Virus record (IMG/VR): IMGVR_UViG_3300048919_000265
Direction: 5' to 3' (one strand)
Source of the DNA: a virus
DNA length: 64,000 nt
A program made the translations under genes and the position numbers. Numbering within the stretch: position 1 is the stretch's first letter; each line of letters opens with the position of its first letter. The notes below the pieces were generated by a model that was given only the letters and a program-made list of their open reading frames with translations, was not told the origin of the DNA and searched no databases. Positions 23,702 through 54,481 of this stretch are shown one piece after another.

Positions 23702-24131
23702 CCACAAAATCCACAACCTCACTCTCTCTAACTTTCGAGATTTTACCAGAGTCATCCACAGAGAAGAAAAATACAAACTTTCTATAATCAGAAATATTCT
23801 CCGTTTTAAGTTTGTAGATAACATATCTGTCAGTTGCTTCCTCAGGCACAACTATAACTGGTTTATTCTTGAACTTTAGATAAACATTTAAGGCCCTATC
23901 AGTGTTATCAATCGTAAGTCGCTCATACACTTCACTAGTCGTCAGTTCCTTTAACTTCTGCATATTATCGTTAAGTTCTTCAAGACTAGCAAAGTTATAC
24001 ATATACTTCACAGCAGTAAGACCTAATTCCGTGTTTCTACCAACCTTTTGGAATTGTATCATCATCAAAGATAACATAACAATTGTATAAACAATAACTA
24101 CAACTAATACTATCTTAGTAGTCTTACTCAT
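23679..24131 (-). CDS. N-terminally anchored extracytoplasmic protein, possibly NTF2-like (VirB8/TcpC-like) fold
   Basis: MSKTTK + TM helix, helical segment, then alternating beta strands (YVIYKL, FVFFFSV, GKISKVRE). Confidence 0.5.
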   Translation of the reverse strand: MSKTTKIVLVVVIVYTIVMLSLMMIQFQKVGRNTELGLTAVKYMYNFASLEELNDNMQKLKELTTSEVYERLTIDNTDRALNVYLKFKNKPVIVVPEEATDRYVIYKLKTENISDYRKFVFFFSVDDSGKISKVRESEVVDFVDDNKLNY

Positions 24132-24675
24132 GAGGTTCCTCAGAAGCATACATTAATTTCAATCTCTCTTCTTTATTCATGAAGTACAAAGACATAAATT
24201 CATCAAGTCTACTTTCCGACTCCACTGTGACCTCGAACTTGACAGGAGATCCATTTAGATCTTGAATAGTAAAAACTCCACCAGTAGTGCCTTCAACAGC
24301 CCGGCCCAAATTACTATCCGGATTAATCTTACCGTCAAATAATTTATCCCCAACCTCATCAAACATCAATAACCCATGATCCCTAATAACATCCCCATTA
24401 TCCGATATTTCTTTCACCGTAATTAAAGTTCCTGAAGAAATATTAGTAGAATACCCTTGCTTTGGTTTGGATGTTCGCAATAATTGTTCAATACTCATCT
24501 TGAGATTCTGTTTTTGTGTAAGATTGGATTTCTCTGCATCATACTCTGTATTTTCACTCAAATCACCAAAACCTAAAGCTTCTTGCAATCTCTTTTCACT
24601 TTCTAAAATCTGTTCATCTAAAAGCTTTAGATCTCCTTGCAATTTAGAATACGCAACTGAACTTATCTCTCTCAT
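24124..24675 (-). CDS. greA: GreA/GreB-family transcription elongation factor
   Basis: Coiled coil with tip GDLSENTEY (acidic D and E retained); C-domain ISSGT...PDSNLGRAVEG. Confidence 0.85.
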   Translation of the reverse strand: MREISSVAYSKLQGDLKLLDEQILESEKRLQEALGFGDLSENTEYDAEKSNLTQKQNLKMSIEQLLRTSKPKQGYSTNISSGTLITVKEISDNGDVIRDHGLLMFDEVGDKLFDGKINPDSNLGRAVEGTTGGVFTIQDLNGSPVKFEVTVESESRLDEFMSLYFMNKEERLKLMYASEEPHE

Positions 24676-25430: not shown

Positions 25431-25949
25431 TTATCCCACCTTCACAGCACTAATACTATCAATAACTTCCTGTACATTTAACCTAACACCTTTGAAAGAG
25501 TCAGACACTACCGAGTCTATGAAAGAAGAAAAATTATAAACTAATTCCACATCCGTATTTATATTACAGCTATCTGGCACAACCACAACATTAGTCATCT
25601 CCAAAGCCTTCTTATTTGCACGACGCAAATTGTTGTTTAAACTCCTAATATGTTCAAAGTTTTGCGTAACTGGATTAAATATCTTAGTAGTAAAAGTCCC
25701 AGATCTGCCATACCAATCCACGTCAGATAGTCTTCCCTGTAATTCACTATTGAAGCTCTTAGCTTCAATGCAATAAATATTCCAAGGGGTTATAAACAAC
25801 CTATCTATTTCGGTTGTAGTCTTTAAAAATGATGAATGAATTCTTAAATTAGGCAACATAAAACAACCTTTGTTTTTTAAGCTTGAGAGAACCGATGAAA
25901 TTTGAACTTCAAAAGCGGTTCCCTTCTTTATTGGTGATGCCATATCCAT
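25431..25949 (-). CDS. NERD-domain (PD-(D/E)xK-type) nuclease-related protein
   Basis: GTAFE, NLRI...EIDRLFIT...IYCIEAK, NPVTQN..H. Confidence 0.85.
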   Translation of the reverse strand: MDMASPIKKGTAFEVQISSVLSSLKNKGCFMLPNLRIHSSFLKTTTEIDRLFITPWNIYCIEAKSFNSELQGRLSDVDWYGRSGTFTTKIFNPVTQNFEHIRSLNNNLRRANKKALEMTNVVVVPDSCNINTDVELVYNFSSFIDSVVSDSFKGVRLNVQEVIDSISAVKVG

Positions 25950-35235: not shown

Positions 35236-38200
35236 CTAATTCTTATAACGTTTAATATCTTCCTCTAAGGCCCCGTGCGTGAAATCATTGCCGCTATCCG
35301 ATTTACTTATCTCCGAGCTAGCAGAAACATAGGTCTCAGTTCTAATAGGTTTTCTGTTTCTGCGTAAAGTCCTACGAATATACTCATCATCCACAGCAGC
35401 ATCTTCCATCTCGCTAAGTGATATACTTAGATCATAACGATTAGTTTGATCTTGTGGAACTGCAACTACTTCCTCATTTTTATTAAAAATGTTAGTTGTT
35501 TTAACTTTGAGGTTATCCACCACTTCACCTAAGTGCACCTTATCAAGCAACCACTTTAACTTATCATTAATTTTTGAATTCCCCATCTCCGTCCAGTTAA
35601 ATATAATAGCGGATACAATTTGAGAAAGGATAAACAAAATTAAACCAAAGATTATGCACAAGCCATAAATAACCACATAAATATTGAAATACGTTGATGC
35701 CCCTAAACTCCATACAAAAACAGTAAAACATAGCAACAATATCAAACTAACTTTTATATACCCAGCCAAAGCAGGCCATACCTTTTCACCTGCCACATAC
35801 CTACCTATCAATAGAAGACCTAGACCGATGTATAACACAGGGACAAGAAATTGTGTGCACAATACAATCAAAAATGCAAACAATAATACAAGTAGAAACA
35901 CTAACAGAGTAAAAATATCAGTTTCATTTGCCACATATGTAGCGACATCCATATCCTCTGCTATAAATCTACTGTAATCATCTGTCATTGCAGCCAGCAT
36001 TACATCCTTCATAGTAAATTCTTGATAGTTCAAAGAAAAAGGATATAGCCAGTTCGCATACTCGCTTGCTTTTTGATTCAGAATCGTTGTAGCGTAAATA
36101 GATATTATTTTAATTAAATTCTCGTCAGACATCATCCCAACTTGCGGCTTAAAATCAATAATAAACTTCTTAGTTTGATAATTAACATCTGTTATCAAAT
36201 TGCGATATTTTTCTTTACTCTCCTGTGTGTTGGACAAAAATCCGTTCTGCTCTAGGGTTTGATACCATAGGGTTTCCTTAACTTCTGGAGTTGGTTTGCT
36301 TATTATTTCATTTAACCCCAAGAAATCCCCTGGTGTTTGGAATACAGACTTTAGTTTCGCTAATTCTTCAGGACTAGCGCCATCATTCGCCTTACTGAAA
36401 TCCTCTGGGGTAAGAAACGGTATGCTATTAATATAACTATAGACAACGAAACTGTCCTTCTCTAGTCCATCTTTGTACTTAGTACTATGCTTTGGTATAT
36501 TGTATACCTCTAATAACTTGTTCAGTGTTCCAGTAAAACCATCAACTACTTCATAATAAGGAGTATAATAATCTAAAACTGAGCTATTCATCTTCTGTGC
36601 CGTATAAACATAGCGACTAGTTCCTTGATCAGGATCGTAAGCCCCTGTTATTGGATTATTAGCCATGAGAGTGTCCACATTAACTTTCAATGTATCGCCC
36701 TCTAAGTAAATCCCGTTCTTAGAATCCAACATAGTTACTTTACCAGAAGATAATTCCCTAACTGATAACTTATATCTGTCCGCAACAGTCTGCAAATCTT
36801 TATCAGACAGCTTATACAGATTCAAACTTGTGGTAGAAATACTTAACTTACCATCAGGTCCAATTGTTCCATCTTTACCATACGTGGTAGCATACTTTTC
36901 AGCTTTAGTAGCAAGTACCTGATAAGACAAGTTTTTGCTAATATTGTTAGCTGCTAAGTTATACACTCCTGGTAAATACACAGGAAACACTCTAATAAAG
37001 AGGAATATAGTTGTAGCAGCAAACACTGAGAAAATCAGCATGTACAATAAAGTCATACGCATCCTCATAAACTTCACTAATAATATTAGTGCTAATAACA
37101 CGAATACATACCAAAAATAATCTCTAACAACCGTCATAACCTTACCAAGAATAGGATCTTGATACTGATTCTTTATACCTAAAACCCCATCAACTTTACC
37201 TAAAGACTCTAATATGTCCCTAGAAAATTTAACGAAGTTACGCTTAAATCGATTATACTCGTCATCACTCATTTTGGTATAAGACTCTGTCATATTTCTA
37301 TCATAGGCTGAAGCATAAATACTTCCTCCTAATCCTTCCACCAAAATGTTACGAAATATATAATCTTCTCTAAGTCTACCGTTGAAGTTAGCACTCTCGC
37401 TATTTCCACTATTTATATACGACCAATACATATTATAAGCTATCAAATTACGAAGGCTTCTATTAGTATCTTGTGAAGTCGTATACGGAAACACTGGTAC
37501 TTTATTAGGCAAGACTGCGGAATTTATTACAACTGCCCGCATATCATCCGTGTAAAAATTTAACATCCCTGCACGTCTGTCCCACCATCCTGGAATACCT
37601 GCTTCACTTCTTGCTAACATTGGAGATTTGCCTTGCCCAACATCAACAAAATCCCTATAAATTGCAATTGATTGTTTAGCATGACTAATGGATAGGTTTT
37701 GATCCCCTTGAACATTAATGAATATAGGCTTCGAATCTAATGATTCCCCTTCAGTCATCAACAGAAACTTACCTTCATCTTGCGGACTACCTAATTTTAA
37801 ATCCTTAGATCCTTCTGGTATGTAAATAGAAGGATAACCATTCATAAATGCTACAGTATATGGATTATACCCCATCGTCTCGTCATACAGCATTGGATTA
37901 GCAGCAGCTGGAATAATTATCATATTATCATCTGCAACAATATCTCCAAATGCATTAATGAATACAGACCTACTATCAGCGTGCTCTATATTAGCGGCTG
38001 TTATATTCTGTTTTATAAAATTCTTTAATAATGCAAGTCCTGTTATAGGATATCCATCGGCATACCCAAACTCAAACAAGGAAGAAGTCCAATCAGTAGA
38101 ATTAACTTGTTCATCTGCCATAGTTACTACAGGTTTAACTGCTTCTCCAGCCGTTAAATTGGTCGGAGTAGTTGAAGGCTGAACAGCTTCTGTAGTTTTA

Positions 38201-39612
38201 GCAGTAGCGGAATCCTCTGTAGCATCTTCTCCAGTTTCTGTCGTTTTTGTAGCAGTCTCTGCTGTATTGCTCTCCTGAGTTTGTTGTTGTTGCTGAGCTT
38301 GCTGCTGTTGCCAGTTAACTGAATTCTCCTTGTAAAATCCCCATGAATTTGCATCGTCCCCAACCTGTTTAAAATCTCCTCTATGGGTTACAAATCCAGA
38401 CACATCTTCAGAATCCACTCTATTTATGAATTCCTTAATCGTCAATCTTTTGCCACTTCCCGCATAGGTTGGAAAACTCGCCTTATCAGTAGAGGCATCC
38501 CCAAAAACTGAATCCCACCAACCGGCATCCTCAATGACATATAGCGGCTTACGATAGTCTTTCAATTGGTTATACAAATTCAATATCTTTTTAGATTTAG
38601 TAGCATCTCCCGAAGTCAGATATGCTAAGGCATCCAAGTACTCTTTATCACCAGCGTGGCTAGAGAAAGGCTTGTAGACGGAAGTAGCTGCAATCATGGC
38701 AACATAAGTATCTCGCAATTTAAATTTATTATCCCCATCACCATGTCCTACGGTTGGTTTCCACGCATCAGCTTCGTAATCTGTAACTGAAGCCCCTTCT
38801 TTTGGTTCTACCCATGCTAACTTCTGGATGCTCTTCACAGCACTGTCGTCATAATCGACATTACCAACTTGCACACTTTCTTCTTCCGATAACTGCTTAC
38901 CTTTATCCAATAACTCCGAATATTTTGAGTTACTAATTATACTATTAGCAGCTGTACTAGAAGTTAAGACCGAGGTAGGATCATTATCCATTGTGTTACT
39001 ATCTGTACCTAGCATTGCTTGCATTTCTGCCTGTTCTTGAGTCAATACCTGTAACACACTATAAATGTACCGCAGATTATCTTTGTTATCTGCAATAAAT
39101 TTTTCCGAATCCGCACCTGCCTGGTCATACTCAGCTCTAAATGTTTTTAATACTTCCTCTAAATAGTCAGGCACAGTCGAATTCAAATATTGACTAACAG
39201 CCTTATTAAATCCGCTTGTACCGCCAGTGCCAACAGAAAGCTTCAGCGCTTTATAGTAAAACTTTTCATCGGCTGCAGCTGTTGAATCCTTTGAATATCG
39301 AAGATTAAACTCTGAGTAATTCTGTATTAACTCATCTCGATAAATTTTCTTCTCTGCTTCACTAAATTCTAGGCTAGGAGCTTTAGTCATTAATTCGGTC
39401 CATCTAGTAGATAGCGTTAAGTAGTAGAGATTATACAAGAGACCATATTGCCCCTCATACTTATTCTCAAATGCAGAATTATATCCCTTTATTTTACTTA
39501 CAATCATCCATTTTAGATCTTCCGTATTTGTGGGATCAGCCCTACCAACCGGTAATGGAACACTCATAATAAGAATACATATAGAAAGGAGCACCACCAT
39601 AACCTTTCTCAT
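35236..39612 (-). CDS. Giant multi-pass envelope protein, 1458 aa; candidate VirB6-like component
   Basis: Signal peptide, large extracellular region with poly-Q/Thr-rich linker, TM pair near residue 830, several more TMs near residues 1230-1340. Confidence 0.6.
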   Translation of the reverse strand: MRKVMVVLLSICILIMSVPLPVGRADPTNTEDLKWMIVSKIKGYNSAFENKYEGQYGLLYNLYYLTLSTRWTELMTKAPSLEFSEAEKKIYRDELIQNYSEFNLRYSKDSTAAADEKFYYKALKLSVGTGGTSGFNKAVSQYLNSTVPDYLEEVLKTFRAEYDQAGADSEKFIADNKDNLRYIYSVLQVLTQEQAEMQAMLGTDSNTMDNDPTSVLTSSTAANSIISNSKYSELLDKGKQLSEEESVQVGNVDYDDSAVKSIQKLAWVEPKEGASVTDYEADAWKPTVGHGDGDNKFKLRDTYVAMIAATSVYKPFSSHAGDKEYLDALAYLTSGDATKSKKILNLYNQLKDYRKPLYVIEDAGWWDSVFGDASTDKASFPTYAGSGKRLTIKEFINRVDSEDVSGFVTHRGDFKQVGDDANSWGFYKENSVNWQQQQAQQQQQTQESNTAETATKTTETGEDATEDSATAKTTEAVQPSTTPTNLTAGEAVKPVVTMADEQVNSTDWTSSLFEFGYADGYPITGLALLKNFIKQNITAANIEHADSRSVFINAFGDIVADDNMIIIPAAANPMLYDETMGYNPYTVAFMNGYPSIYIPEGSKDLKLGSPQDEGKFLLMTEGESLDSKPIFINVQGDQNLSISHAKQSIAIYRDFVDVGQGKSPMLARSEAGIPGWWDRRAGMLNFYTDDMRAVVINSAVLPNKVPVFPYTTSQDTNRSLRNLIAYNMYWSYINSGNSESANFNGRLREDYIFRNILVEGLGGSIYASAYDRNMTESYTKMSDDEYNRFKRNFVKFSRDILESLGKVDGVLGIKNQYQDPILGKVMTVVRDYFWYVFVLLALILLVKFMRMRMTLLYMLIFSVFAATTIFLFIRVFPVYLPGVYNLAANNISKNLSYQVLATKAEKYATTYGKDGTIGPDGKLSISTTSLNLYKLSDKDLQTVADRYKLSVRELSSGKVTMLDSKNGIYLEGDTLKVNVDTLMANNPITGAYDPDQGTSRYVYTAQKMNSSVLDYYTPYYEVVDGFTGTLNKLLEVYNIPKHSTKYKDGLEKDSFVVYSYINSIPFLTPEDFSKANDGASPEELAKLKSVFQTPGDFLGLNEIISKPTPEVKETLWYQTLEQNGFLSNTQESKEKYRNLITDVNYQTKKFIIDFKPQVGMMSDENLIKIISIYATTILNQKASEYANWLYPFSLNYQEFTMKDVMLAAMTDDYSRFIAEDMDVATYVANETDIFTLLVFLLVLLFAFLIVLCTQFLVPVLYIGLGLLLIGRYVAGEKVWPALAGYIKVSLILLLCFTVFVWSLGASTYFNIYVVIYGLCIIFGLILFILSQIVSAIIFNWTEMGNSKINDKLKWLLDKVHLGEVVDNLKVKTTNIFNKNEEVVAVPQDQTNRYDLSISLSEMEDAAVDDEYIRRTLRRNRKPIRTETYVSASSEISKSDSGNDFTHGALEEDIKRYKN

Positions 39613-42073: not shown

Positions 42074-45000
42074 TTAAGCACCTCCAGATTTGATTACGTC
42101 TAATAAAACATAAATAATAATAAACATAATCAAATTAGATATAACCAGTCTGTAAATTGGTATAGGAGTATCTAAATTGTACATCCGTAAAGAAATGAGT
42201 CTTATAACATCAACTCCCTTCCTGTCGGATCCTCTTATTGGATTCTTTATTAAATCCAAGATGGTATAGCCAATCTTGTAATTAACAATTGCGAAACAAA
42301 TCCAAGAGATTATAATCAAATAGCTTAAAAAATAACACAAGGATAATCTAATGAATGATATTAGATCTCCTCTAAACGCTTGCTCGTACATATTAAGAAA
42401 CTCTTGTTTGAGGTCTGCGCTTTTAGATAACACGTTAAAGTTACTCTTATTTAGCATGAGAAACATATCATCTTTTTCTCCTAATGATAGGCTTTCATCA
42501 AAAAACGGAACGTTATCAATATATCCCTCAGAAAGAGTATTAGTGCTAAGCAATAATTGATAAGTTTTAGTGTCCTTATCAATAACACGTGCAAGTAGAT
42601 TCTTATCTAGCGAAATTCTAAATATCACTGATTTCAAAACTGGAACCTTCTTATTACTGTACGATGTTTTAGAGTAAGCTCCTGTTTTATCACTTGTGGC
42701 TATAAAAGCTCCACTACTTGAACTCTCATTACCAATAAGAGTCTTGTTTAAAACCATGCCGGTGATCGGAACACCTAGTGCTGGATTCTTTATGAACGCT
42801 AACAGTGGTATGTCCTGGTTACTAACTTTAACAACATAACCAGTAAACATTTTACTAACCGCATTCTTAACTGTATCCGCATTAGTCGCATCTCTAACCA
42901 CTTTTTGCCAAGAAGTTAAGTTAGTTTGTGGTTGTGAGACAAAATAATCTCCACTCTTTACAAACTCCATATCTCCTACAATCAACTTACTTCCGTTCTC
43001 AAGAGTATTGGGATCGACTGTACCTACGTTTTTAGAAATCATTGAATCGATCAACCCTTGATTCAATCCTGAAAAATAGACGTTACCAACTTGCAAATAT
43101 GGAGATGTTTTACGAGAAACTAACACCCCTCCATCTGTTACACTCCAGTAATTAGAATCTATAACAAATTTCACATGGGCATTCACAGTTTTACCTTTAA
43201 CTTGCTCTAGGGTATAAGAAGCAGAACGGTTAGACGCATTGAAATCTTTAAACGGAGTGCTTTGGACACCGTACCCTTTTGTCGCACTGTCTAGAAAGTA
43301 TATTGCTTTCTGCATAGCCCCCGATGGTAATTGTCCAGTAACACCATCAGAATCTTTAAATGGTACCATTGCTTTGTCATAGTTCTGTGCACTCAGCGAG
43401 ATTGGGCTAAATATAGTTCTTAAAATATTATATCTACTTTCAATAGCATTACTGGAAACAGAACCCTTATTCCCATTCGCAAATGATACATTGCCTTTAA
43501 TCTCATAAAAAGTTTTACCGCGCTTAGTTGTGCTAATTGCTGTACCACTAATAACATTAGTGTCAATCAATGTTATTTTATTTCCCGATATAGAATCTAC
43601 GTAAAATTTATAACCTCCGGCAGTAACATAACTCTTCTCCCAATAATCTCGCTTATTCTCTGCTGTGCGTGTTTTAATTTTTACAGATCCGTCATACGAC
43701 ACTGGGAAATTTCCATCAGTTGGATCGACCATTCTATAAACCGCATCATTCTTGGTAACAACATAAACAGAATCTCCAGTATTATAAGAACGACTTCCTT
43801 GTGCCACATCTCCGGTTCCTTGCTCTACATCCAGCCTCCGATCACCCATGAGATAGCGCCAAAGAGTACCGTTTTTATACTTACTTCCACCAGATTCAGG
43901 AACCATGCCCATGTTTTCTGATGTTTTACCTTGCGAGTTATTAAACATAGCGTAAACCCACAAAGGATACTCCTTTTGTGGGAAATTATCCGGAACTGGA
44001 TAATAAAAACTAGAGCCGTTACCAGCATCAACATACTTTCCATTCCCTTGAGGTATGGTATTATAAGTTTGCGTGCTACCCATAAAGCGAGTAACCCAAC
44101 TACTAGGTATCTCAGCCCCTACCTGCTTAAATATACTACCTAAAAATCCACTGGAAACCACATTATCTTTGTCATAAAGGACAGTGACATTAGGAACTAG
44201 ATACCCGCTCTTTATATATCTCGTGCCTGAAGTCCCGTAAATTATATTCGCAAACGCATTAGACAGTTCTAAATTGTTATCCCACCAGTCTGCTAATTGC
44301 TTGTCTTCGGGACGTTCAAACAAAAACTTATTGACCTCTTTCAAAGACGGATTAGGATTAGAATACAATGGAGCTGTAAAACTAGTATTCTTATCAGGCA
44401 TCTTATAAACTAAGTGAAGTATAAGTGTAAACTTCATATCCTCACCTTTACCAGATTCGTCTTTCTTGCTAAAGGTTCTAATTAGAAAATTGCTTGCAGA
44501 AGTAAGTTGAGATATATTTACAAATTCAGAAGTTACTGTTGGCGCCGCTGCACCAACATCTCCCCCACCCGCAAACTTACCTTTAAATTTAGCCACATAC
44601 GTACTCGCAATTTTATTACCCGTACTACCTAATACAGGCGCTAGATGCTCATCATAGATATTTTTAGTTAAGTATAAGCTATTCGGATCCAAAGACGAGA
44701 TATACGCATTACTCATTAGCATTTTTATAACATCTAAATTATAATAGATTTCTCCGCCCACACTACTAACCATCACATCCTCAGTTTGAATAACATGTGA
44801 GCCGACCAGTGCTATATTCTTGTCCTGTAAAAGTATAGCCATTGCACCAGTTCTCTTGTTCTTTAATAGCTTATCTTCCATGATAACGATATCACTTTTT
44901 ATGTTTTTGAAAGAACTGGCCGGGACCAAAACAACTTCCTGTCCACTATCCGTATACTTGGTCACCGCTGTTATATACTTAGTGCTGAACAAGCTATCAG

Positions 45001-46852
45001 TAGCAACTTGCAAATTCCCGTCTACCGTACGCAAAGCGGTTGTAGCATTACTAGCATTAACCTTAAATTTAACTTCCCACTGATACTTGCTTTTCGCACC
45101 TGCTGGCACAGTAGCACTTATCAATTCCGGAAACTTACTTTTGTTAAATTCCTTGCTAGTCATTAATACGCCTTTATATTTATACTTACGATAATCATCA
45201 AACACCTTTTTTATCTCATACTGGTTTGGGGAAGTCACAGCAGGAGCAGCGAAATTAGTCTTTTTGGTATAAACCTTAAACCCAAACCACCTGCTCTCCT
45301 CAATACTAGCTTGCGGCTTCGCTGTACTACTTTCTATCAGATCAACCGCTTCTGTTTCAGCTTCTGGTATAGGAGAAACTGAATACGACCCTGACTCATC
45401 CTTAAGCTGTGTTGTTTCCTCCACCTTCTCAGAATTAATGCTTACCTGAAGCTGACTAAATCCTTTTTGGAGCCAAAAATTATCCGAATCAGTTAATTGT
45501 ATCTCGGAAAATTTAGTTCTAGCTTCCTTATTAGCCAATCGGTATAATAATTTGTAAGAAAATTCCACAGTCAAATTTCCATACAAATTTCTGTATTCCG
45601 TAGGATCTTCAAAATTCAAAATACCTTTAGCCGTTAAGAACATTACAGTTTTACGATCCGCATCTGTCAATCCATCCAAATAATTAGCACCATATTTATA
45701 GGTAACTATTTTTGCTTCTGTATCTGTCATATCCTTTTCAGTTAAGCGAAGCATACTTTCTACATACTTCAAAGCAGTCATAGAATCAACTGCTTCGTTC
45801 ACGAAATAATTTGGAGTCGTCTTATCTATAACAACAGTAGATCCCTTGTTCGCGCTACCTCTGCTGCTGCCGTCTGCGATACCTGTTATATTATAACTCT
45901 TACCCAAAACCCGGCTACTACTTAGATAATCAACTAAGTCATTTGGCTGATCTTTTCCTGCCATAGCCATGAATGGTGCTAATCCATTATACCATAAGGG
46001 ATAAATATTAGAGCCTTTACTGGAGGAGACTTGAATCTTTTCATATCCCTCCTTAAAGCGTAAATCTTTAATATTCGACATGTCGATAATTTTCTTATCG
46101 ACTAATTCTTTTAAGTATAACTCATAAACATTAGGACTAACATAACTATAATAATCCCCTTCAGGAAATTCACGCTCAACATCCTCTTGCGCGCCATAAG
46201 GAGTGTAGGCATACTCGTGACCTGTTTCCGAAACTACTTGTCTCTCCCTCGGTCTATACTTCTTTTCCCTATTCCCATCTTCGTCTTGTGTATAATAAAT
46301 CTCTGATGCTTCGCGCCAAGAAGAAATGTTAAACACTAAAGGGCGACTTTCTATAACCCCATACAACGCTTTATAGGCACCCATCAAAAAATCACTTCTT
46401 GTGACACTAACATTAGGTTCATTACGATCATACAAAACTGGTTGCTTGCCTACTGTAACACCCGAAGCTTTTATCGTTACCTCCGGATCTCTGCTTACAA
46501 TATTATGCTCTATAAGCCAATTCAACTCTTTGTCCGATAAGCTCGTTGTTAAGGGTTTAAAATTCTGGGAAGAAAAAACTCCCTGCCCTTCAGCAGACTC
46601 TGATCTAGGAATAGTCAAATTATTACTATTCCGTTCTATATTATCCTGAATCACTTCTTTACTATTGGATGCAGCCACAAGTTTTTTCCCTTGCTCCGAC
46701 AATCTATCAGTTGTTATCTTATAATCTATCTCCCGTTGTTGATTGTTAATACTTCTTACTCCGGTCACAGTTGAAGCAGCTTCTGCAACTCCCGAGAACA
46801 AAAATAGCGAAACTAACATCAGTGCTACACTACGGTGTTTAATCTTCATCAC
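42074..46852 (-). CDS. Giant secreted/membrane-anchored surface protein, 1592 aa, with SLH-like motifs
   Basis: Signal peptide ending AEAA; SLH-like WLIEHNIV...VTRSDFLMGAYKA and FLTAKGIL...LTVEFSYKLLYRL; C-terminal TM pair. Confidence 0.65.
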   Translation of the reverse strand: MMKIKHRSVALMLVSLFLFSGVAEAASTVTGVRSINNQQREIDYKITTDRLSEQGKKLVAASNSKEVIQDNIERNSNNLTIPRSESAEGQGVFSSQNFKPLTTSLSDKELNWLIEHNIVSRDPEVTIKASGVTVGKQPVLYDRNEPNVSVTRSDFLMGAYKALYGVIESRPLVFNISSWREASEIYYTQDEDGNREKKYRPRERQVVSETGHEYAYTPYGAQEDVEREFPEGDYYSYVSPNVYELYLKELVDKKIIDMSNIKDLRFKEGYEKIQVSSSKGSNIYPLWYNGLAPFMAMAGKDQPNDLVDYLSSSRVLGKSYNITGIADGSSRGSANKGSTVVIDKTTPNYFVNEAVDSMTALKYVESMLRLTEKDMTDTEAKIVTYKYGANYLDGLTDADRKTVMFLTAKGILNFEDPTEYRNLYGNLTVEFSYKLLYRLANKEARTKFSEIQLTDSDNFWLQKGFSQLQVSINSEKVEETTQLKDESGSYSVSPIPEAETEAVDLIESSTAKPQASIEESRWFGFKVYTKKTNFAAPAVTSPNQYEIKKVFDDYRKYKYKGVLMTSKEFNKSKFPELISATVPAGAKSKYQWEVKFKVNASNATTALRTVDGNLQVATDSLFSTKYITAVTKYTDSGQEVVLVPASSFKNIKSDIVIMEDKLLKNKRTGAMAILLQDKNIALVGSHVIQTEDVMVSSVGGEIYYNLDVIKMLMSNAYISSLDPNSLYLTKNIYDEHLAPVLGSTGNKIASTYVAKFKGKFAGGGDVGAAAPTVTSEFVNISQLTSASNFLIRTFSKKDESGKGEDMKFTLILHLVYKMPDKNTSFTAPLYSNPNPSLKEVNKFLFERPEDKQLADWWDNNLELSNAFANIIYGTSGTRYIKSGYLVPNVTVLYDKDNVVSSGFLGSIFKQVGAEIPSSWVTRFMGSTQTYNTIPQGNGKYVDAGNGSSFYYPVPDNFPQKEYPLWVYAMFNNSQGKTSENMGMVPESGGSKYKNGTLWRYLMGDRRLDVEQGTGDVAQGSRSYNTGDSVYVVTKNDAVYRMVDPTDGNFPVSYDGSVKIKTRTAENKRDYWEKSYVTAGGYKFYVDSISGNKITLIDTNVISGTAISTTKRGKTFYEIKGNVSFANGNKGSVSSNAIESRYNILRTIFSPISLSAQNYDKAMVPFKDSDGVTGQLPSGAMQKAIYFLDSATKGYGVQSTPFKDFNASNRSASYTLEQVKGKTVNAHVKFVIDSNYWSVTDGGVLVSRKTSPYLQVGNVYFSGLNQGLIDSMISKNVGTVDPNTLENGSKLIVGDMEFVKSGDYFVSQPQTNLTSWQKVVRDATNADTVKNAVSKMFTGYVVKVSNQDIPLLAFIKNPALGVPITGMVLNKTLIGNESSSSGAFIATSDKTGAYSKTSYSNKKVPVLKSVIFRISLDKNLLARVIDKDTKTYQLLLSTNTLSEGYIDNVPFFDESLSLGEKDDMFLMLNKSNFNVLSKSADLKQEFLNMYEQAFRGDLISFIRLSLCYFLSYLIIISWICFAIVNYKIGYTILDLIKNPIRGSDRKGVDVIRLISLRMYNLDTPIPIYRLVISNLIMFIIIYVLLDVIKSGGA

Positions 46853-47303: not shown

Positions 47304-48507
47304 ACTTAGCCATATCTGATAACTCCTGTTGCGTTAAGGTACTTATCTTACCAAACTGAGACTGTTGCCTAAGAGCTTGCGTACTTTTAAATTTAGCGGA
47401 AGCCTCCGCATTTTGCGTGACAGCATTAACTTTGCTGTCAGTTATGATGCTGCCCACACTCTTCCCATTCAATACCTGGTGCATCTTAATCACAGCCAGT
47501 TTAAAATCAGCTTCGGTGCATTTATTTACATCTAGTGATCCTACAATTCCAGCTAACTTATAGATAACGGAATCCTCTAAAACTTCTTGAATCGAATTTT
47601 TATCCTCCTTAGAAAATTCAGACCCCGATCCACCATACACTAATAAAACAGTGTTCACCATAAAATCTTTAAATTGTATTATAACTGTATCCAAACTGTG
47701 TACAGATAACAAACTTTCAAGCGACTTAGCAGTAGCGTACATACCTTCTCGCATACTCCGATACAAGTCAATAAAAACTTCATTAGATATAAAACCTAAA
47801 TATTTACGTAATTCTTCTTCATTCGGTTTATTTTTAATGCTAAACTCAAGAAGATCAACTAAGTTCCTTGGGATCCCTGCCGCAGACTTTATTAACATCT
47901 CTTCTGTTTCTTTATTAGTTTTGGTAATCCCTAACCGTAACAGTGTCTTATCAAACAAAAACTTAGCTTCTGTCCTATTCAAGCGGGTGAATCTATAGGT
48001 AGCACCCATCGCTCGACTTCTTAATTCTGGCAAAAGTTTATGTTCCTTAGTAGTCGTTACCAGCACTTTAGTGCTATCGTCCAAACGATCAATATGCTCT
48101 AGAAATGGTAATTGCTCGTTTTGCCCTAACGCATGAAATTCTTCCAAAATATACACGTTATAACCATAACTACCTTGCAATGTGAATATTTCTTTTATAA
48201 CATCGTTAATGTCCTTCTTACTATCTAACTTAGCCATATTAATCTTAACCAAGTTCATTGATCTGCCTGTAGAATTGATAGCTCTAACATTAGCTTTACA
48301 ACTATCACACTCTAAGCAAGGCTCATTGTTTTTCAGATTGGTGCACGTTAAATACAAGCCTGTGATATCTGCACAAGAAGACTTACCAGTGCCCATCACT
48401 CCTGAAAAAATAGCGAAACTTTTTAGGGTCTTAAGTTCCAATGAGCGTTGTAACAATGCAATAACTGCCACATTTCCTACAAGTTGTGAGAATTTTGTTA
48501 ATCGCAT
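47275..48507 (-). CDS. dnaX: DNA polymerase III gamma/tau-like clamp-loader subunit
   Basis: FSQLVGN, FSGVMGTGKSS (Walker A), C-x7-PC.EC.SC Zn motif, YILEEFH (Walker B), LRSR sensor. Confidence 0.9.
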   Translation of the reverse strand: MRLTKFSQLVGNVAVIALLQRSLELKTLKSFAIFSGVMGTGKSSCADITGLYLTCTNLKNNEPCLECDSCKANVRAINSTGRSMNLVKINMAKLDSKKDINDVIKEIFTLQGSYGYNVYILEEFHALGQNEQLPFLEHIDRLDDSTKVLVTTTKEHKLLPELRSRAMGATYRFTRLNRTEAKFLFDKTLLRLGITKTNKETEEMLIKSAAGIPRNLVDLLEFSIKNKPNEEELRKYLGFISNEVFIDLYRSMREGMYATAKSLESLLSVHSLDTVIIQFKDFMVNTVLLVYGGSGSEFSKEDKNSIQEVLEDSVIYKLAGIVGSLDVNKCTEADFKLAVIKMHQVLNGKSVGSIITDSKVNAVTQNAEASAKFKSTQALRQQSQFGKISTLTQQELSDMAKFGKEARDEN

Positions 48508-48530
48508 AAATAACTCTCCTTAAATGAAAT

Positions 48531-48559
48531 ATAGCGGTGGGGATAATCCCCACCGCTAT
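48531..48559 (-). terminator. Probable intrinsic terminator after the high-expression gene
   Basis: 12-bp perfect stem ATAGCGGTGGGG/CCCCACCGCTAT, followed on the minus strand by ATTTCATTT; 26 nt after the stop at 48586. Confidence 0.75.
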
Positions 48560-48585
48560 TTGAGTACACAGCCGTATTGCTTCTA

Positions 48586-50031
48586 TTATTGAGCAACGCG
48601 AGCGGCAGCGCGAATATCAGTAATCGAGTTTTCGATTTGTTTGAAATCAACATTAGTATCAGCGAAAGTAATATCGCTTTCATCCAGTTGATGTTGTGCC
48701 AAACCAAGACGCAGGCGAATCAATTGCTCATTGCTTACGAAGTTAGCTGGTTTCTTAGTTGTAGTACGACGAGTAAGTTCACGCAGACGTTCAACAGTCA
48801 AAGCACCATTAGAAGCATCAACAATTGTTTTGAACGCTGGATTATTCAAAGATGCCAATTTGCTCAGCTCAGGATCGTTCAACACGCGTTCGTCAGTAGT
48901 GAGAACTGTTTTGAAACGTGGATTGCCCATAACTCCTGCAGCATTTGGTTTAGCTTCCTTAACAGGAATAGCGATATCGGAAAGAGGCTCTCCTTCTTTT
49001 GCATCGAAGAAAGGACGAACAGTAATTTGCTCGCGCTCATTGATGTTACGTGCAAAGAAAGTAGAAGTAATCTTACCTTCTGCATCAACACTTACCTTGT
49101 TTGCATCTTCAGGAGCCAACAGACTGTATTTACTCTTGTCGTCTCGGTTCTTGCGACCATGAACCAAATTGTGGAAAGCAGAAACATTCAGCTTCTCAAT
49201 TTGCGTTTCGTCCAGCGGTTGGTTGTAGTTAATTGTTTCATAAGTGCGCAGTGGGAAATAGTTAGAATCAATAAACAAACTACGACGTTTGCTAGTTTTC
49301 AACAATGGAACAACCACTTGTTGACCTGTAGGTTGACCATCTTTAGTTTTGTAACGAACAGTAGCTTTTTGTGTTACCACACCAGCAGCTGCTCCACCAT
49401 GAGTAAGTTCGCTTTCTGCAATCTCACTACCAAAATACAAGTCGAGGATTGTAGGATACAGTTCTTTAGACAATACTTGCGTAACCAGAGTACGATTAGA
49501 CTCATCAGCTTGAAGGCGACCTGGTTTCAAGAAGTCTGTCATTTCAACGATACCCCCAGCTGGGATAGTCAAAACCAAACCTTGGATTTTACCAGGCTTA
49601 GCTTGACGAACGTTAATACGAGTCTCAGTTTGTAGATACTTCTTAGCAACTTTTTCGCCTTGTTCATGCGCCTGTTGCACTTCTGCTGGAGCTGTAGCAC
49701 TAACTACAACTTTACCATTTTCCAAACGAGGTTCTGCTGTCGTTATGAACTCAATACGTTTGTCGGTAGCAGTAATGTAACCAATCAAACGACCTTCAGT
49801 GCGATTAAACTTTTGCAGAGAATAAGCGTCTGCAGCTTCCATTTCAGAAATTTGAGAAGAAATTTCAGCACGCAATCCAGATGGTTTACTTTCAGTTGTG
49901 CTAGGCTCTTCGTTAAACGCATTCATTGCAGTGGGTGCTGCATTACCTTCAGTCAAACCTTGCTGCAAATCCTCCAAACCTGTTGAACTCAATTCTGCCA
50001 AACCTTCCAAACCCTTCAAACCGTCTCCCAT
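48586..50031 (-). CDS. Unknown 481-aa protein with strongly high-expression codon usage (starts MGDGLKGLEG)
   Basis: Internal ATG 50029-50031 with AAGGAG 9 nt upstream and an A-rich leader; CGT/TTC/GGT/GCT/ACT-rich; followed by a strong hairpin. Confidence 0.8.
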   Translation of the reverse strand: MGDGLKGLEGLAELSSTGLEDLQQGLTEGNAAPTAMNAFNEEPSTTESKPSGLRAEISSQISEMEAADAYSLQKFNRTEGRLIGYITATDKRIEFITTAEPRLENGKVVVSATAPAEVQQAHEQGEKVAKKYLQTETRINVRQAKPGKIQGLVLTIPAGGIVEMTDFLKPGRLQADESNRTLVTQVLSKELYPTILDLYFGSEIAESELTHGGAAAGVVTQKATVRYKTKDGQPTGQQVVVPLLKTSKRRSLFIDSNYFPLRTYETINYNQPLDETQIEKLNVSAFHNLVHGRKNRDDKSKYSLLAPEDANKVSVDAEGKITSTFFARNINEREQITVRPFFDAKEGEPLSDIAIPVKEAKPNAAGVMGNPRFKTVLTTDERVLNDPELSKLASLNNPAFKTIVDASNGALTVERLRELTRRTTTKKPANFVSNEQLIRLRLGLAQHQLDESDITFADTNVDFKQIENSITDIRAAARVAQ

Positions 50032-50412
50032 TACTTTCAGCTCCTTAGCTATTTCTTTTGTTTTGTTAATTTTTCCTGCAGGATATAACTTTTCAATATA
50101 TTCAACACCCGAGAATTGATCTTTACCATTCCATTCCCGAATATTGAACTTTCTTCTGCGAATCTGTTTGGCAACAAGAACTCCATCACTAGAAACTATG
50201 TGTGCTTTATCAATATCAGTCACACTATCTAAGGGCCGGTCACTTGCTACCCATTTCGCACCATCAATAACAATGGGGACTGCAACCTGTAACTTCTCCT
50301 CAGAACTCAACTCCCTGAATTTTGACAACTCAAGAGTGTACTTCAAGTCCATCTCATGAAGAGTCCGCAGTTCACTGTGCTGCATCATAAACTCCATCGT
50401 AATTTCAGTCAC
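50032..50412 (-). CDS. 127-codon upstream segment (MTEITMEF...), in frame with the 481-aa protein; either an N-terminal extension or a separate gene
   Basis: GTG start with G-rich RBS; ordinary codon usage (AGA, CGG); one extra A in the A5 run at ~50070-50074 would create a TAA stop. Confidence 0.55.
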
Positions 50413-50487
50413 TAGTTAATACCACCACCCCCACGTATATTCATCATGAGATAATCAGCCACTGTCTTAAAATACGGTATTGCGTTC

Positions 50488-50515
50488 CTGGCTGTGATTC
50501 GACAATCACAGCCAG
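50488..50515 (-). terminator. 12-bp perfect hairpin directly after the alpha-subunit gene, no U tract
   Basis: CTGGCTGTGATT-CGAC-AATCACAGCCAG. Confidence 0.5.
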
Positions 50516-50522
50516 AAAATTG

Positions 50523-51218
50523 CTATTCCTCAAGAGAGAGCTCAAAACCTTGATTAACTTCTTCCTCCTCTCTATAGAACTCCGGATCTTTCTGAGAAAT
50601 CCTAGATTGAACCATAGAAACATTTTTAAGCAAAAGACTCAAACTATCCTCAAGCAAACTCATTTCATCTGCTGTATCAGAGTCGACACAAAGGATCAGC
50701 CATTCATCCAACAGAGAAGCTTCTTTAATATCGAAAGTGAAGTTACGTACATTAGTATGGCGCGAATTAAACACCATGTAATCCTCCCTACGTTCTCCAC
50801 TTTCTATTAAGAAATCAGCGTTGCTAGCATGATCCATTTCGCCAGAAGCTTTTCTAAACACAATAGTAAGTGTAACAGCACGATCCTCTAATGATGTCAT
50901 AATAACACTATCTGGACCAGACACTACAAAATTATCAGACATCATTTCGCTACTTCTAAGACTCTTAGTGAAAGTAAACTTCTCCTTAATGAAATTTCCT
51001 TCAAGTCCTTCAGTGGGCACGTACCTTAAAGATGTAACACCTGCCATAATGCTAGGCATATCTTCGGGAATCTCAGCAGTTGTATGCACCGTATTAAACT
51101 TCCTATCTAGTGAAATTGCAATAGGTACCCAAGCCGATAATCTTGACATAGCTATTTGTCGTAATGCATTGCCTACAGCTACACCCACTCCTTTAGGCAA
51201 TCGTACTTCGAGTTTCAT
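50523..51218 (-). CDS. rpoA: RNA polymerase alpha subunit, N-terminal assembly domain only (no CTD), 231 aa
   Basis: LPKGVGVAVGNALRQIAMS aligns with E. coli LERGFGHTLGNALRRILLS; IPEDMPSIM aligns with VQEDILEIL; later FNSRHTNVRNFTFDI...EWLILCVDSD aligns with DSIYTPVSRVSYQV...DKLTLDVWTD. Confidence 0.85.
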   Translation of the reverse strand: MKLEVRLPKGVGVAVGNALRQIAMSRLSAWVPIAISLDRKFNTVHTTAEIPEDMPSIMAGVTSLRYVPTEGLEGNFIKEKFTFTKSLRSSEMMSDNFVVSGPDSVIMTSLEDRAVTLTIVFRKASGEMDHASNADFLIESGERREDYMVFNSRHTNVRNFTFDIKEASLLDEWLILCVDSDTADEMSLLEDSLSLLLKNVSMVQSRISQKDPEFYREEEEVNQGFELSLEE

Positions 51219-51775
51219 TATACCACCTCTACAATGTAAGTTTCTTCGCTGTTGTTACCAAAATACAATAAGATAGAAGCAAGAGCAAGCAAATCATTAG
51301 CTTCTAAACGTTCCAATTCTTCATAATTAAACTGGGCGAAAACCCCAATACTAAACCCATCTGTGCTATCTCCATTCTCAAGCACTCCCTTAAGTTCCGC
51401 TACAATATCCTGCAAAACTAATTGCTTCTTTGGTATCTTAGACTCTCTTCCCAAAGAAGTCTCAATTTTAATACAAGGACTGATATCTAACTCTGTACGC
51501 AAAACGTTACACAACATATTAGCCATGTCTTGATAAAAATACTTTAACACCAACGAACACTCGTACAGAAACTGATCTTTACCTCTCAAGTAATCCAATG
51601 CTTTTTTATACACAAATATATCTCGCCCGTACAGATCAGAAACTATTTGCAGATGCAATTGGCTTTTTACATAATTTTCAAAGGTAAACGTCAGATCTCT
51701 GTTGAAAAAGTGCATGTGTATAGGCTTGACGCCACTAACAATAAACATCATAAACTGACTGTACGGAACTATCAT
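51218..51775 (-). CDS. Hypothetical protein, 185 aa
   Basis: ORF track; TAATG coupling on both sides. Confidence 0.75.
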   Translation of the reverse strand: MIVPYSQFMMFIVSGVKPIHMHFFNRDLTFTFENYVKSQLHLQIVSDLYGRDIFVYKKALDYLRGKDQFLYECSLVLKYFYQDMANMLCNVLRTELDISPCIKIETSLGRESKIPKKQLVLQDIVAELKGVLENGDSTDGFSIGVFAQFNYEELERLEANDLLALASILLYFGNNSEETYIVEVV

Positions 51776-52821
51776 CAGAACTCCCTCAAATTCAGTAATT
51801 CATTTTTTACAACCTTTTCTTGATCAAAAGATAGATTGCGATCTGCAGCAAACTCACCACTCTTTAGTTCCCAAGCCCGACGCCGTAAATCTTCAATCTC
51901 TTCTTCCAAGGCTGGTAATTTCGACTCTCTGATTGTCTTTAGACTGGCATAATCGTTAGTCAATGACAATATCTTAGCAAGTCCAAATTTATCAATCTGA
52001 GAGATTGAAGCTCCCGTAAAATCAATACCCTCAGCCATCCTAGGATAAACAAGATTAAGATTGTTCAAAAGAAAGACAGCATCCTCCTTCACTAGCCTAC
52101 CATTATCTAATAATTGTTTTATAAACAACTTAAGGGCTGTGGGATTACGGGTGACATTAACGTTAAAGGTGGACATTCCTTCATTCAGGAAGTTGCAGAA
52201 CTCCTCATACAGAGTTGCACCTTTTAACTTCGTGTGTTCAGAAGAAAATGCATGTACTCTATCCGAACCATCACCACAGAAAACTTTATGTGCAGATATC
52301 GTATTAAACATAATCTTTTTACCACGAACAACACTATAATTAAAATTATGCCAAGTAACTCTATTAACATTACTATTGAGAGGCTCCATTGTGACTTTAC
52401 TATCAACATTATGTGAGATATCATAGTCTGCGGTATAAATGGAAATTTTGCTATATTGATCTCTGTTCTTCTCCACAGCACTAAAGATAAGATCATCCGC
52501 TTCAAAACCCTTTACCTTGTACGCAGGTATTCCACACTGCAACAACCGTTCATACAAAAATTCAGCTTGACTATTTACTACATGAGCACTAGGTCGATTT
52601 CCTTTATAATCAGCACTGATAGTTTTGCGATCAGTACTACTATCAAACATAACAGCAACATCTGCCATATTAGATAAATTCAGAACTAGGGTCTTGAGTA
52701 AGTACTTTACCCCACCTAATGGATAACCATGAGCATAAACTTTGCTATACTCATCTATATTTGTAACAGAATGCAAATAACCATGTGCATCATGTAATGT
52801 TAAGTGTCCCTTCACTACCAT
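51775..52821 (-). CDS. Stand-alone 5'-3' exonuclease / flap endonuclease (Pol I N-terminal type)
   Basis: HDAHG, VMFD, RKTISADYKGNR, GFEADDLI, YTADYD, GDGSD motifs. Confidence 0.9.
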   Translation of the reverse strand: MVVKGHLTLHDAHGYLHSVTNIDEYSKVYAHGYPLGGVKYLLKTLVLNLSNMADVAVMFDSSTDRKTISADYKGNRPSAHVVNSQAEFLYERLLQCGIPAYKVKGFEADDLIFSAVEKNRDQYSKISIYTADYDISHNVDSKVTMEPLNSNVNRVTWHNFNYSVVRGKKIMFNTISAHKVFCGDGSDRVHAFSSEHTKLKGATLYEEFCNFLNEGMSTFNVNVTRNPTALKLFIKQLLDNGRLVKEDAVFLLNNLNLVYPRMAEGIDFTGASISQIDKFGLAKILSLTNDYASLKTIRESKLPALEEEIEDLRRRAWELKSGEFAADRNLSFDQEKVVKNELLNLREF

Positions 52822-52829
52822 TCAACTCC

Positions 52830-54065
52830 TCAAACCGCCGGTGTTATATCCAAACAGAAAGTCTCTATTAAATCAATGACCCTACTAAAGGTAAGATTAT
52901 TCTTTTCAAAATCAGGATCTATGACAGTTCTAGACTCAGAACTGAAACTTAGTTTCTTCAAACTTTCTACTAGTAGTTTACTATTAACCAATGTAAACAT
53001 ACAAAACCCAACATTATGCAACCGGTTAAACACACCTTCAAGTTCTTCTTTTCCCAAGATAATACCTTCCTCTTCCGGAAAAAGCTGAGCACACAAAAAT
53101 TCATAATCATTATCTAACCTAAACAGTTTGTAATACAATTGAGTTATTTCCTCGGCCACACCTGAATCAATAACCCCTCTACCTAAAAGAGTTTGCATAA
53201 TGTCCACAAATTCTTTGCTCTGGTCATCAAACAAATCACTTAAATATTGCACCTTTTCTGGAATCTCTGATAGATCTAACTTTACTGTACTTAAGCCCAT
53301 ACTAGATATTAAATACTTCTTAAAGTCTATACCACCGATAGCATCAGAAACAGTAAAAATGCTAGAACTTTTGGTTTGTTCTGTGTTGGGATAGTGAAGC
53401 CTTAATATCTCAACACCTTCCAATCCCACATTCCTTAATTGTGCCTTATTTGCCCCTGTTGCAGAGAACATTCTTTCTACCACACTTAATAAAAATCCAG
53501 GACCGAGACTTGCGATTCTGTGTAGCTTTTCACCAAACACACTGATTTCTTTAAAACTGTTTAATTTTATTAAACGTATATATGTCTTCAACACAGATTT
53601 ATAATACTGCTTATAATGCAGCAAAATCTTCAACTCATAATCCCCAAGAGTAACAACTCCAGGACTACCATCAAACTTCCTAAAACTGTTGACAACTGTT
53701 TTAGTACTATTGCTGGTTTCCGCAATATGTTCAATATCTTTTTCGATTCTACTCATTAACTCCTGCTTTTGCTCATCCGTCAATCCTTCGATATCACATT
53801 TATAACTCCGCTTTAATGGCTCAACTGCATTAGATTTGATTAAGTCAATTTGTCTACTCAGCTTTCTTATTTCCGGAGAAGCATACTGTACTTCTATCTG
53901 GGTGTCCAAAAATTCTGCTAAATATTGTAACTCAGATTTAAATTTTTGTAAACCCTTGCCATCTAAAGGATTGTTCATGACAGAAGACAATCGGACGACA
54001 CTGGAGTTATTTAACTCTAAAAGGGCTGCAGTTGCTCCTGTCACCCCGAAAAATTCTCCTAGCAC
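52830..54065 (-). CDS. Hypothetical protein, 411 aa
   Basis: Long ORF coupled to the partition pair; no recognised motif. Confidence 0.8.
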   Translation of the reverse strand: MLGEFFGVTGATAALLELNNSSVVRLSSVMNNPLDGKGLQKFKSELQYLAEFLDTQIEVQYASPEIRKLSRQIDLIKSNAVEPLKRSYKCDIEGLTDEQKQELMSRIEKDIEHIAETSNSTKTVVNSFRKFDGSPGVVTLGDYELKILLHYKQYYKSVLKTYIRLIKLNSFKEISVFGEKLHRIASLGPGFLLSVVERMFSATGANKAQLRNVGLEGVEILRLHYPNTEQTKSSSIFTVSDAIGGIDFKKYLISSMGLSTVKLDLSEIPEKVQYLSDLFDDQSKEFVDIMQTLLGRGVIDSGVAEEITQLYYKLFRLDNDYEFLCAQLFPEEEGIILGKEELEGVFNRLHNVGFCMFTLVNSKLLVESLKKLSFSSESRTVIDPDFEKNNLTFSRVIDLIETFCLDITPAV

Positions 54066-54481
54066 TACTTTTTCCCCCTACTCTTACTCATCTTTTTCAG
54101 TATAGCCAGCTGATCTTTCTTCATATTTTTAGGGTCCACAGACACCTTTTTAACGACTGGAGCAGAAATTAGATCCTCATCCTTATCTATACGGATTGCA
54201 GGAGTAGGGGAATAATTCCCTACTCCTGCGCTGAGCATTGCTTCTATAGTTCGTTGTAAAGAGCCTATAGTGTTATTAAGCATCTCTATAGTTTGTCCAG
54301 AACTCGCAACAGAGTTTCTCAAACTTTCGAATTCCGACGCTGCAATCCCACTAGCTCTCTCATTAAATAGATCCGAGATATACTCTGACAGTAATCCATC
54401 ATCACTATAACGAGCGTATGCATCCTCAGCTTCCTTTGAGACAAGGATAAGTGTGAGATCAACTTTAACTTCGCGGCCCAT
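54065..54481 (-). CDS. Putative ParR-like DNA-binding adaptor, 138 aa
   Basis: Directly downstream of the ParM-like gene; N-terminal beta strand plus two helices (RHH-like), coiled coil, basic tail. Confidence 0.5.
   Translation of the reverse strand: MGREVKVDLTLILVSKEAEDAYARYSDDGLLSEYISDLFNERASGIAASEFESLRNSVASSGQTIEMLNNTIGSLQRTIEAMLSAGVGNYSPTPAIRIDKDEDLISAPVVKKVSVDPKNMKKDQLAILKKMSKSRGKK

Follow-up and report, generated by a model that had tools for sequence, protein, structure and literature searches.

Described alpha subunits and mobile polymerases

The C-terminal domain (CTD) of the alpha subunit of bacterial RNA polymerase (RNAP) contacts UP elements and activators. Arg45 of Escherichia coli alpha is needed for binding the beta subunit, and its substitution by alanine blocks formation of the alpha2-beta complex (PMC3294249). 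Here we examine a gene for a CTD-less alpha-like protein of 231 amino acids (aa), located in a 64,000-nucleotide stretch of the IMG/VR virus record IMGVR_UViG_3300048919_000265 (hereafter the window, by which we mean this whole stretch). With reference to the fold and family of this protein, and to the genes that accompany it in related elements, we suggest that it is probably a subunit of a private RNAP encoded by a lineage of giant mobile elements.

The N-terminal domain (NTD) of bacterial RpoA (e.g. PDB 4noi, 8dkc and 1bdf) shares with the alpha-like protein its two-domain fold, its dimerisation helices and the residues R44, E76-D77 and G151. However, the alpha-like protein differs in having neither linker, CTD nor the first ~25 residues, in carrying Gln for Arg45, and in being encoded by an element, outside the alpha operon. 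Glutamine at the Arg45 position also occurs in alpha2 of Francisella tularensis, a second cellular alpha paralogue (PMC3294249; RNAP structure 6wmp). Yet Francisella alpha2 is encoded on the chromosome and joins alpha1 in serving the single beta and beta' that the cell possesses, whereas the alpha-like protein is CTD-less, element-borne and, in relatives, accompanied by a beta-beta' of its own. Moreover, Francisella alpha2 keeps its CTD. Alpha homologues that are naturally without the bacterial CTD include archaeal Rpo3 (D) and eukaryotic Rpb3 and AC40, which resemble the alpha-like protein in this respect but heterodimerise with the small Rpo11/Rpb11.

Regarding the catalytic subunits, Helicobacter and Wolbachia possess beta and beta' fused in a single chain, in the order beta then beta', and the same arrangement is found in relatives of the element described here. 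In those bacteria the fusion is the cell's essential enzyme and uses a normal full-length alpha, whereas the element fusion is 24-30% identical to cellular beta and has no beta' zinc ribbon. Jumbo phages (phiKZ, and the non-virion (nvRNAP) and virion (vRNAP) polymerases, AR9 nvRNAP among them; PMC7824862) are likewise replicons with their own two-barrel, cellular-type RNAP and no recognisable sigma-70. In jumbo phages, however, beta and beta' are split into 4-5 polypeptides and the review names no alpha homologue among the subunits (PMC7824862), while relatives of the present element combine a single-chain beta-beta' with an alpha homologue, and there is no structural PHROG among the window proteins scanned. 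A full-text literature search found no description of a mobile element that encodes alpha together with a cellular-type fused beta-beta'. To our knowledge, no plasmid is known to carry a cellular-type core RNAP, and none emerged from the literature search.

An alpha N-terminal domain without linker or CTD

50523-51218, minus strand: alpha-like gene, 231 aa; RNA polymerase alpha NTD homologue without CTD, with Q21 at the E. coli R45 position and an acidic tail

An earlier examination of the window from its letters alone (hereafter the sequence-only reading) had proposed a 231-aa alpha NTD for this gene, which is on the minus strand, and named profile or structure searches as able to refute its fold. 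A phmmer search of the PDB with the single sequence matched 38 chains, all of them RpoA (best E 1.3e-4), and a profile of 69 family members reached solved RpoA at E 5e-20 across alpha residues ~28-230, with bacterial alpha chains accounting for all 55 PDB matches at E<=0.01, which would make the family one of bacterial rather than archaeal or eukaryotic type. The AlphaFold2 (AF2) model of the protein, made from the 69-sequence alignment, has a predicted local distance difference test score (pLDDT) of 95.6 and a predicted TM score (pTM) of 0.86, and displays the two-domain alpha-NTD architecture with both dimerisation helices (H1 and H3) predicted. When this model was submitted to Foldseek the top 50 matches were again all RpoA chains (E ~1e-13, TM 0.65-0.75), at sequence identities to the solved alphas of 14-20%. 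Phmmer, family profile, AF2 and Foldseek thus all agree, and the alpha-NTD homology and fold of the protein are secure.

Against E. coli RpoA (from NC_000913.3), the GNALRQ of the alpha-like protein aligns to GNALRR, which places R20 opposite R44 and Q21 opposite R45. Its sequence begins at approximately alpha residue 25, with the first ~25 residues of bacterial alpha missing, and ends near the equivalent of E. coli residue 235-240, about where the NTD stops, with the linker and CTD (~85 aa) absent. Nine of its C-terminal 22 residues are Asp or Glu, and pLDDT is lower in this part (74-78). The gene lies outside the rpsD-rpoA-rplQ layout of E. coli and in no ribosomal operon context, its neighbours in the window being genes for a 5'-3' exonuclease, a DnaX-like clamp loader, and ParM-like, T2SSE ATPase, RecJ-like and UvrD-like proteins. 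Consequently, the absence of a CTD, the acidic tail, the Gln at the Arg45 position and the location outside a ribosomal operon, all of which had been read from the sequence, are upheld. In Pfam the protein scores 15.9 bits against RNA_pol_L, under the gathering score of 24, and has no match to RNA_pol_A_bac; a PHROGs search also returned no match. It thus departs from a canonical RpoA in its missing CTD, its substituted Arg45, its place outside the alpha operon and its score below the Pfam cut-off.

A family with its own conserved residues

An exhaustive search for relatives over 1.84 billion representatives yielded 118 at a threshold of E<=1e-3, 113 of which are CTD-less proteins of 180-235 aa (mostly 195-225 aa), while four proteins of full-length RpoA size were found only near the threshold. 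The equivalent of Arg44 (R20) is invariant in all 113 family sequences, and further columns are nearly so, namely N133 (112/113), S152 (108/113), H154 and P32 (106/113 each). G126, which corresponds to E. coli G151, is present in 105 of the 113, and at E52-D53 (E. coli E76-D77) Glu is found in 85 and Asp in 91. By comparison, the Arg45 position is occupied by Gln in 70 of the 113 sequences, by His in 10 and by Lys in 7, with Arg in a few members. Motifs of the family's own replace the bacterial ones at E. coli positions 55-59 (RPIAF) and 175-177 (SRH), and the acidic tail is restricted to the closest relatives of the alpha-like protein.

The invariance of R20, together with the other near-invariant residues, indicates that purifying selection acts on what would be a working alpha-like protein. 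Furthermore, given that Gln is the family norm at position 45, we interpret it from these alignments as a lineage-wide trait under selection and not as damage. Two family members are already annotated by the IMG pipeline as 'RNA polymerase alpha subunit'. The proteins form a large family of CTD-less alphas on mobile elements, the homology of which has been labelled by machine but which is undescribed in the literature searched. No match to the alpha-like protein was obtained by tblastn against 50,697 phage records or against plasmid records, and pattern scans of IMG/VR and JGI metagenome contigs detected no relative. A scan of GTDB with the five closest alpha-like sequences similarly found nothing; a later GTDB scan gave the assembly of Lachnospiraceae bacterium 47-T17 (JBCLQW01), in which an alpha-like gene is situated on a 103 kb contig among the same neighbours.

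A fused beta-beta' in related elements

The 141 kb contig of a distant relative, which carries an alpha-like gene (P0025), also contains a gene for a fused beta-beta' of 2851 aa (L014:292-8847). Its Pfam domains occur in the order Rpb2_45, Rpb2_6 (E 1.5e-57), Rpb2_7, Rpb1_2 (2.2e-23), Rpb1_3, Rpb1_4 and Rpb1_5 (2e-19), it aligns to E. coli beta 423-1337 and beta' 179-1356, and it reads YNADFDGD at residue 1663, with NADFDGD intact. The longest recorded contig is 154,507 bp for this exact protein, and likewise for its accompanying alpha-like and partner proteins. An HNH endonuclease gene directly follows the beta-beta' gene of this relative (L014:8998-9855), which also encodes two family-A DNA polymerases, of 1500 aa (L012:4430-8932) and 590 aa (L008:3079-4851).

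The assembly of Lachnospiraceae bacterium 47-T17 provides a second case. Two Rpb2_6 matches exist in the whole assembly, one being host rpoB (445 bits) and the other a frame of 2751 aa (161 bits), which is located on a 45 kb contig (L021:3455-11707), contains NADFDGD, and is 41% identical to the 2851-aa protein. The alpha search of the whole assembly also gave two matches, namely the 204-aa alpha-like protein (187.5 bits; G001:C12:60361-60945) and host rpoA (52 bits), the latter an open frame of 324 aa that reads GNSLRR. Each element stretch that was scanned yielded a single alpha-like gene, and the sole other alpha in 47-T17 is that of the host, such that no second, Arg45-bearing alpha of the Francisella type was found on the element. 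The element contigs have a GC (guanine plus cytosine) content of 37%, compared with 48-54% where host rpoA and rpoB are located, and in this draft assembly the element appears to be split over at least two contigs, of 103 kb and 45 kb.

The element subunits are far removed from cellular ones. Whereas the host and E. coli proteins are 51% identical in beta and 43% in alpha, the element beta part is 24-30% identical to either host or E. coli beta, and BLAST gave no hit between the alpha-like protein and host alpha in 47-T17, the one genome with both. The beta' part of both relatives' fusions is without the N-terminal CxC...CxxC zinc ribbon. At their C-termini both fused polymerases end in an M/L-x-x-F-like sequence (PAMNFF and SQLNAF), which may be a docking peptide, for example for a clamp-like protein.

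In the window itself nothing qualifies as beta or beta'. Two long open reading frames, of 1592 aa and 1458 aa, were considered as hidden beta or beta' and rejected, having signal-peptide-like starts, no DxDGD and no Pfam match. When E. coli RpoB was used as a query among proteins >2350 aa, the best 120 of 455 matches comprised Helicobacter, Wolbachia and others, and a protein of this element was not among them. The beta-beta' gene of the present element would lie outside the window, its presence being presumed from the relatives.

One further transcription gene was recognised in the window:

24124-24675, minus strand: GreA/GreB N-terminal-domain protein, 183 aa; Pfam GreA_GreB_N E 2.7e-8, above cut-off

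The Lachnospiraceae relative likewise has a GreA_N match, and its spacing from the alpha-like gene, ~27 kb on the downstream side, is much as in the window. No sigma domain was found among the window proteins scanned, and none of the 32 Sigma70_r2 and 71 Sigma70_r4 matches in 47-T17 falls on its two element contigs.

A private polymerase as the favoured explanation

We consider it probable, from comparison of these sequences, that the alpha-like protein is the alpha-type assembly subunit of the element's private RNAP. The sequence-only reading had listed three options: that the protein dimerises with host alpha, being confined there to the beta' side and removing one CTD, that it pairs with a co-evolved element-encoded beta to form a private polymerase, which might read hairpin+TACATA sites, or that it poisons assembly of the host enzyme. 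The second is strengthened by the two relatives that possess both the alpha-like gene and beta-beta', and nothing that we found points to the first or the third.

Under this explanation, the gene would belong to a lineage of low-GC, co-directional mobile elements of 140-231 kb, equipped with replication genes, a fused beta-beta', a GreA-like factor and a short alpha. The alpha-like protein probably dimerises, and we infer that the dimer would bind the fused chain through both its beta and its beta' portions. As these parts would already be joined, the classical assembly step from alpha2 to alpha2-beta would be unneeded, which would explain why Arg45 is relaxed to Gln, His or Lys while Arg44 is invariant. 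Without a CTD, the enzyme would have no contact with UP elements or class I activators, and promoter choice would have to rest on something else. The positions of E. coli alpha that contact beta and beta' are 45, 48, 86, 173 and 180 (PMC3294249). Given that the alpha-like protein is far from host alpha and differs at positions contacting beta and beta', it is unlikely to fit the host enzyme. A match to the accompanying beta-beta', which has diverged to the same degree, is more probable. The distance of both the element beta and the element alpha from their cellular counterparts would be in keeping with a co-evolving private set.

Operon anatomy and neighbouring genes

The following features surround the alpha-like gene:

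51775-52821, minus strand: 5'-3' exonuclease (FEN-like, i.e. flap endonuclease-like); stop codon overlapping the first codon of the 185-aa gene; position conserved in relatives
51218-51775, minus strand: conserved partner gene upstream, 185 aa; stop codon overlapping the first codon of the alpha-like gene
50488-50515, minus strand: hairpin with a fully paired stem of 12 bp and a loop of 4 nt; it starts 7 nt past the alpha-like stop
48586-50412, minus strand: downstream gene, 608 aa; found after the alpha-like gene in all relatives, at 22-56% identity

The ATG of the alpha-like gene overlaps the TAA of the 185-aa gene (TAATG), and is preceded by a Shine-Dalgarno-like run, GAGGTGG. A homologue of the 185-aa gene adjoins the alpha-like gene upstream in every relative examined, down to alpha identities of 23-29%, and in two ~1.5-2 kb contigs of other members a gene of ~187-189 aa overlaps the alpha-like start. 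The model of the 185-aa protein has a pLDDT of 84 and a pTM of 0.85, and comparisons with PDB structures gave no convincing match (Foldseek E>1, VIA-align Z<=3.4), while its profile retrieved from the PDB only chance-level flagellin rows. The possibility that it is itself a relative of the alpha family was considered and rejected, as hhalign against that family showed no similarity. Because its gene is so tightly coupled to the alpha-like gene, we regard the 185-aa protein as a candidate partner or RNAP-associated factor.

Downstream, a 61-nt stretch that includes the hairpin folds at -27.2 kcal/mol (z -5.7), with no U-run directly after it, and the hairpin may be an attenuator, a processing site or a stabiliser. 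The sole strong intrinsic-terminator-like site in the region is found at 48531-48559, after the 608-aa gene, the product of which has no Pfam, PHROG or PDB-profile match. A scan of 48300-54300 for sigma-70-type promoters gave 18 sites against 17.0 expected, which is at chance level.

Giant elements with a conserved gene order

The window derives from a contig of 212.5 kb (212,527 bp record). A Logan contig that includes the window (SRR35925594_85661, 212,357 bp) is permuted relative to this record, a difference that suggests a circular molecule. The one DNA run in which the window was located is labelled a root metagenome and is the likely source sample. Other family contigs with long assemblies measure 141,300, 154,507, 163,206, 174,591, 179,111, 196,682, 209,064 and 230,887 bp, and the sources of the elements include root, gut-type and other metagenomes as well as the 47-T17 assembly. 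The minus strand encodes all window genes of sizeable length, and GC skew stays below zero in each 2-kb segment (-0.08 to -0.44).

The order of genes around the alpha-like gene is the same in relatives with identities of 53% and 28%. Reading towards the alpha-like gene, the common order is UvrD, RecJ, an unknown, a T2SSE ATPase, several unknowns, FEN and an unknown of ~185-209 aa, and after the alpha-like gene come an unknown of ~600 aa, the clamp loader, an unknown of ~150 aa and a protein of ~1500-1600 aa. No structural-annotated match was obtained in a PHROG scan of the eight proteins around the alpha-like gene and 10 more window proteins, and Terminase_6N had no match in the whole 47-T17 assembly, although the latter constitutes weak evidence only. 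Several proteins of the window, taken together, suggest an apparatus for transfer or at the surface, and not a virion: a 779-aa protein (27308-29647, minus strand) with two weak matches below threshold, one VirB8-like (16.3 bits) and one to NlpC/P60 (21.4 bits), the 1458-aa (35236-39612) and 1592-aa (42074-46852) proteins, both on the minus strand with signal-peptide-like N-termini and no family match, and the T2SSE ATPase (gene at 58167-59789).

Elsewhere in the window, two adjacent Macro-domain proteins are encoded on the minus strand (13009-13506 and 13944-14600), and near this pair are a PemK/MazF-like toxin domain within a 221-aa protein (6247-6912), a DUF3850 protein (18711-19175) and a NERD nuclease (25431-25949). 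A 621-aa Hsp70/DnaK-like protein (11068-12933, minus strand; Pfam HSP70 E 1e-73) is encoded next to a CHC2 zinc-finger primase-type protein (10354-11025).

Alternative explanations

Several of the above observations weigh against a private polymerase. The beta-beta' was seen in two relatives, and for the present element it is a family-level expectation. Moreover, the alpha-like gene is separated from beta-beta' by ~63-77 kb, lies within a block of replication genes, and is translationally coupled to the flap endonuclease gene. With no sigma-like gene recognised, the polymerase may still depend on host factors. In addition, the Gln-45 alpha of Francisella functions only when paired with a different alpha that does carry the Arg (PMC3294249), which leaves room for a host partner alpha.

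This last point leads to the explanation in which the alpha-like protein pairs with host alpha and occupies the beta'-side position, whether the enzyme is host RNAP or a hybrid based on the element beta-beta', such that one CTD is lost and promoter use is shifted. Francisella alpha2, which has been proposed to occupy the beta' side of an alpha1/alpha2 dimer (PMC3294249), offers a precedent with the same glutamine, and both the single alpha-type protein per element and the absence of the part that contacts UP elements and activators would be in accordance with it. We nevertheless judge such a heterodimer unlikely, as the alpha-like protein shows no similarity to host alpha by BLAST in the only genome compared, possesses interface motifs of its own (RPIAF and SRH), and co-occurs with a private beta-beta', while the Arg or Lys of a minority of the family means that Gln is no fixed mark of a subunit confined to the beta' side. 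The divergence from host alpha also argues against tight binding to host partners, and hence against a poison or decoy that sequesters host alpha, beta or beta' in unproductive complexes, thereby stopping transcription by the host. Such a role might be expected of a truncated paralogue of an assembly subunit, altered at the very residue where alanine blocks alpha2-beta formation in E. coli, yet the conservation of the family and the full NTD architecture resemble those of a working subunit, and in 47-T17 the element contigs exist beside a full host gene set, in what looks like stable carriage. Consequently, we regard a poison as the least probable of the explanations considered here.

A function outside transcription is only slightly less improbable than a poison. 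In this case, a dimer with the alpha-NTD fold would have been recruited as a scaffold to the replication or partition machinery of the element, as could be imagined from the coupling of its gene to the 5'-3' exonuclease and 185-aa genes, and from its place between replication genes in all relatives. However, the residues it has in common with bacterial alpha (R44, E76-D77 and G151) are in the assembly domain, a cognate beta-beta' is present in relatives, and we know of no role for the alpha-NTD fold outside RNA polymerases. Returning to the private polymerase, a more far-reaching form of this explanation can be advanced only tentatively, and we consider it somewhat doubtful, if less so than the alternatives above. 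Under this form, the system would be self-contained and independent of sigma-70, with a core of (alpha-like)2-beta-beta' and the GreA-like protein, while the 185-aa protein would recognise promoters specific to the element, be it as a subunit of a new kind or as a specificity factor.

Implications for RNA polymerase evolution

In the more far-reaching form of the explanation, the element would be a replicon resembling a plasmid and not a phage, equipped with a whole RNAP of cellular type from a lineage of its own. If the private-polymerase explanation is true, widespread giant elements with alpha and fused beta-beta' would constitute a new branch of the cellular RNAP tree. The divergence of the element alpha and beta-beta' would far exceed the spread among bacteria. 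These elements may also represent a natural experiment on the purpose of alpha, in which the CTD, the first strand and Arg45 would be dispensable once beta and beta' are joined. If 47-T17 is available in culture, the subunit composition, promoter specificity and rifampicin sensitivity of the enzyme would be directly measurable. A probable private RNAP of cellular type, borne by a giant element that does not resemble a phage, would surprise specialists.

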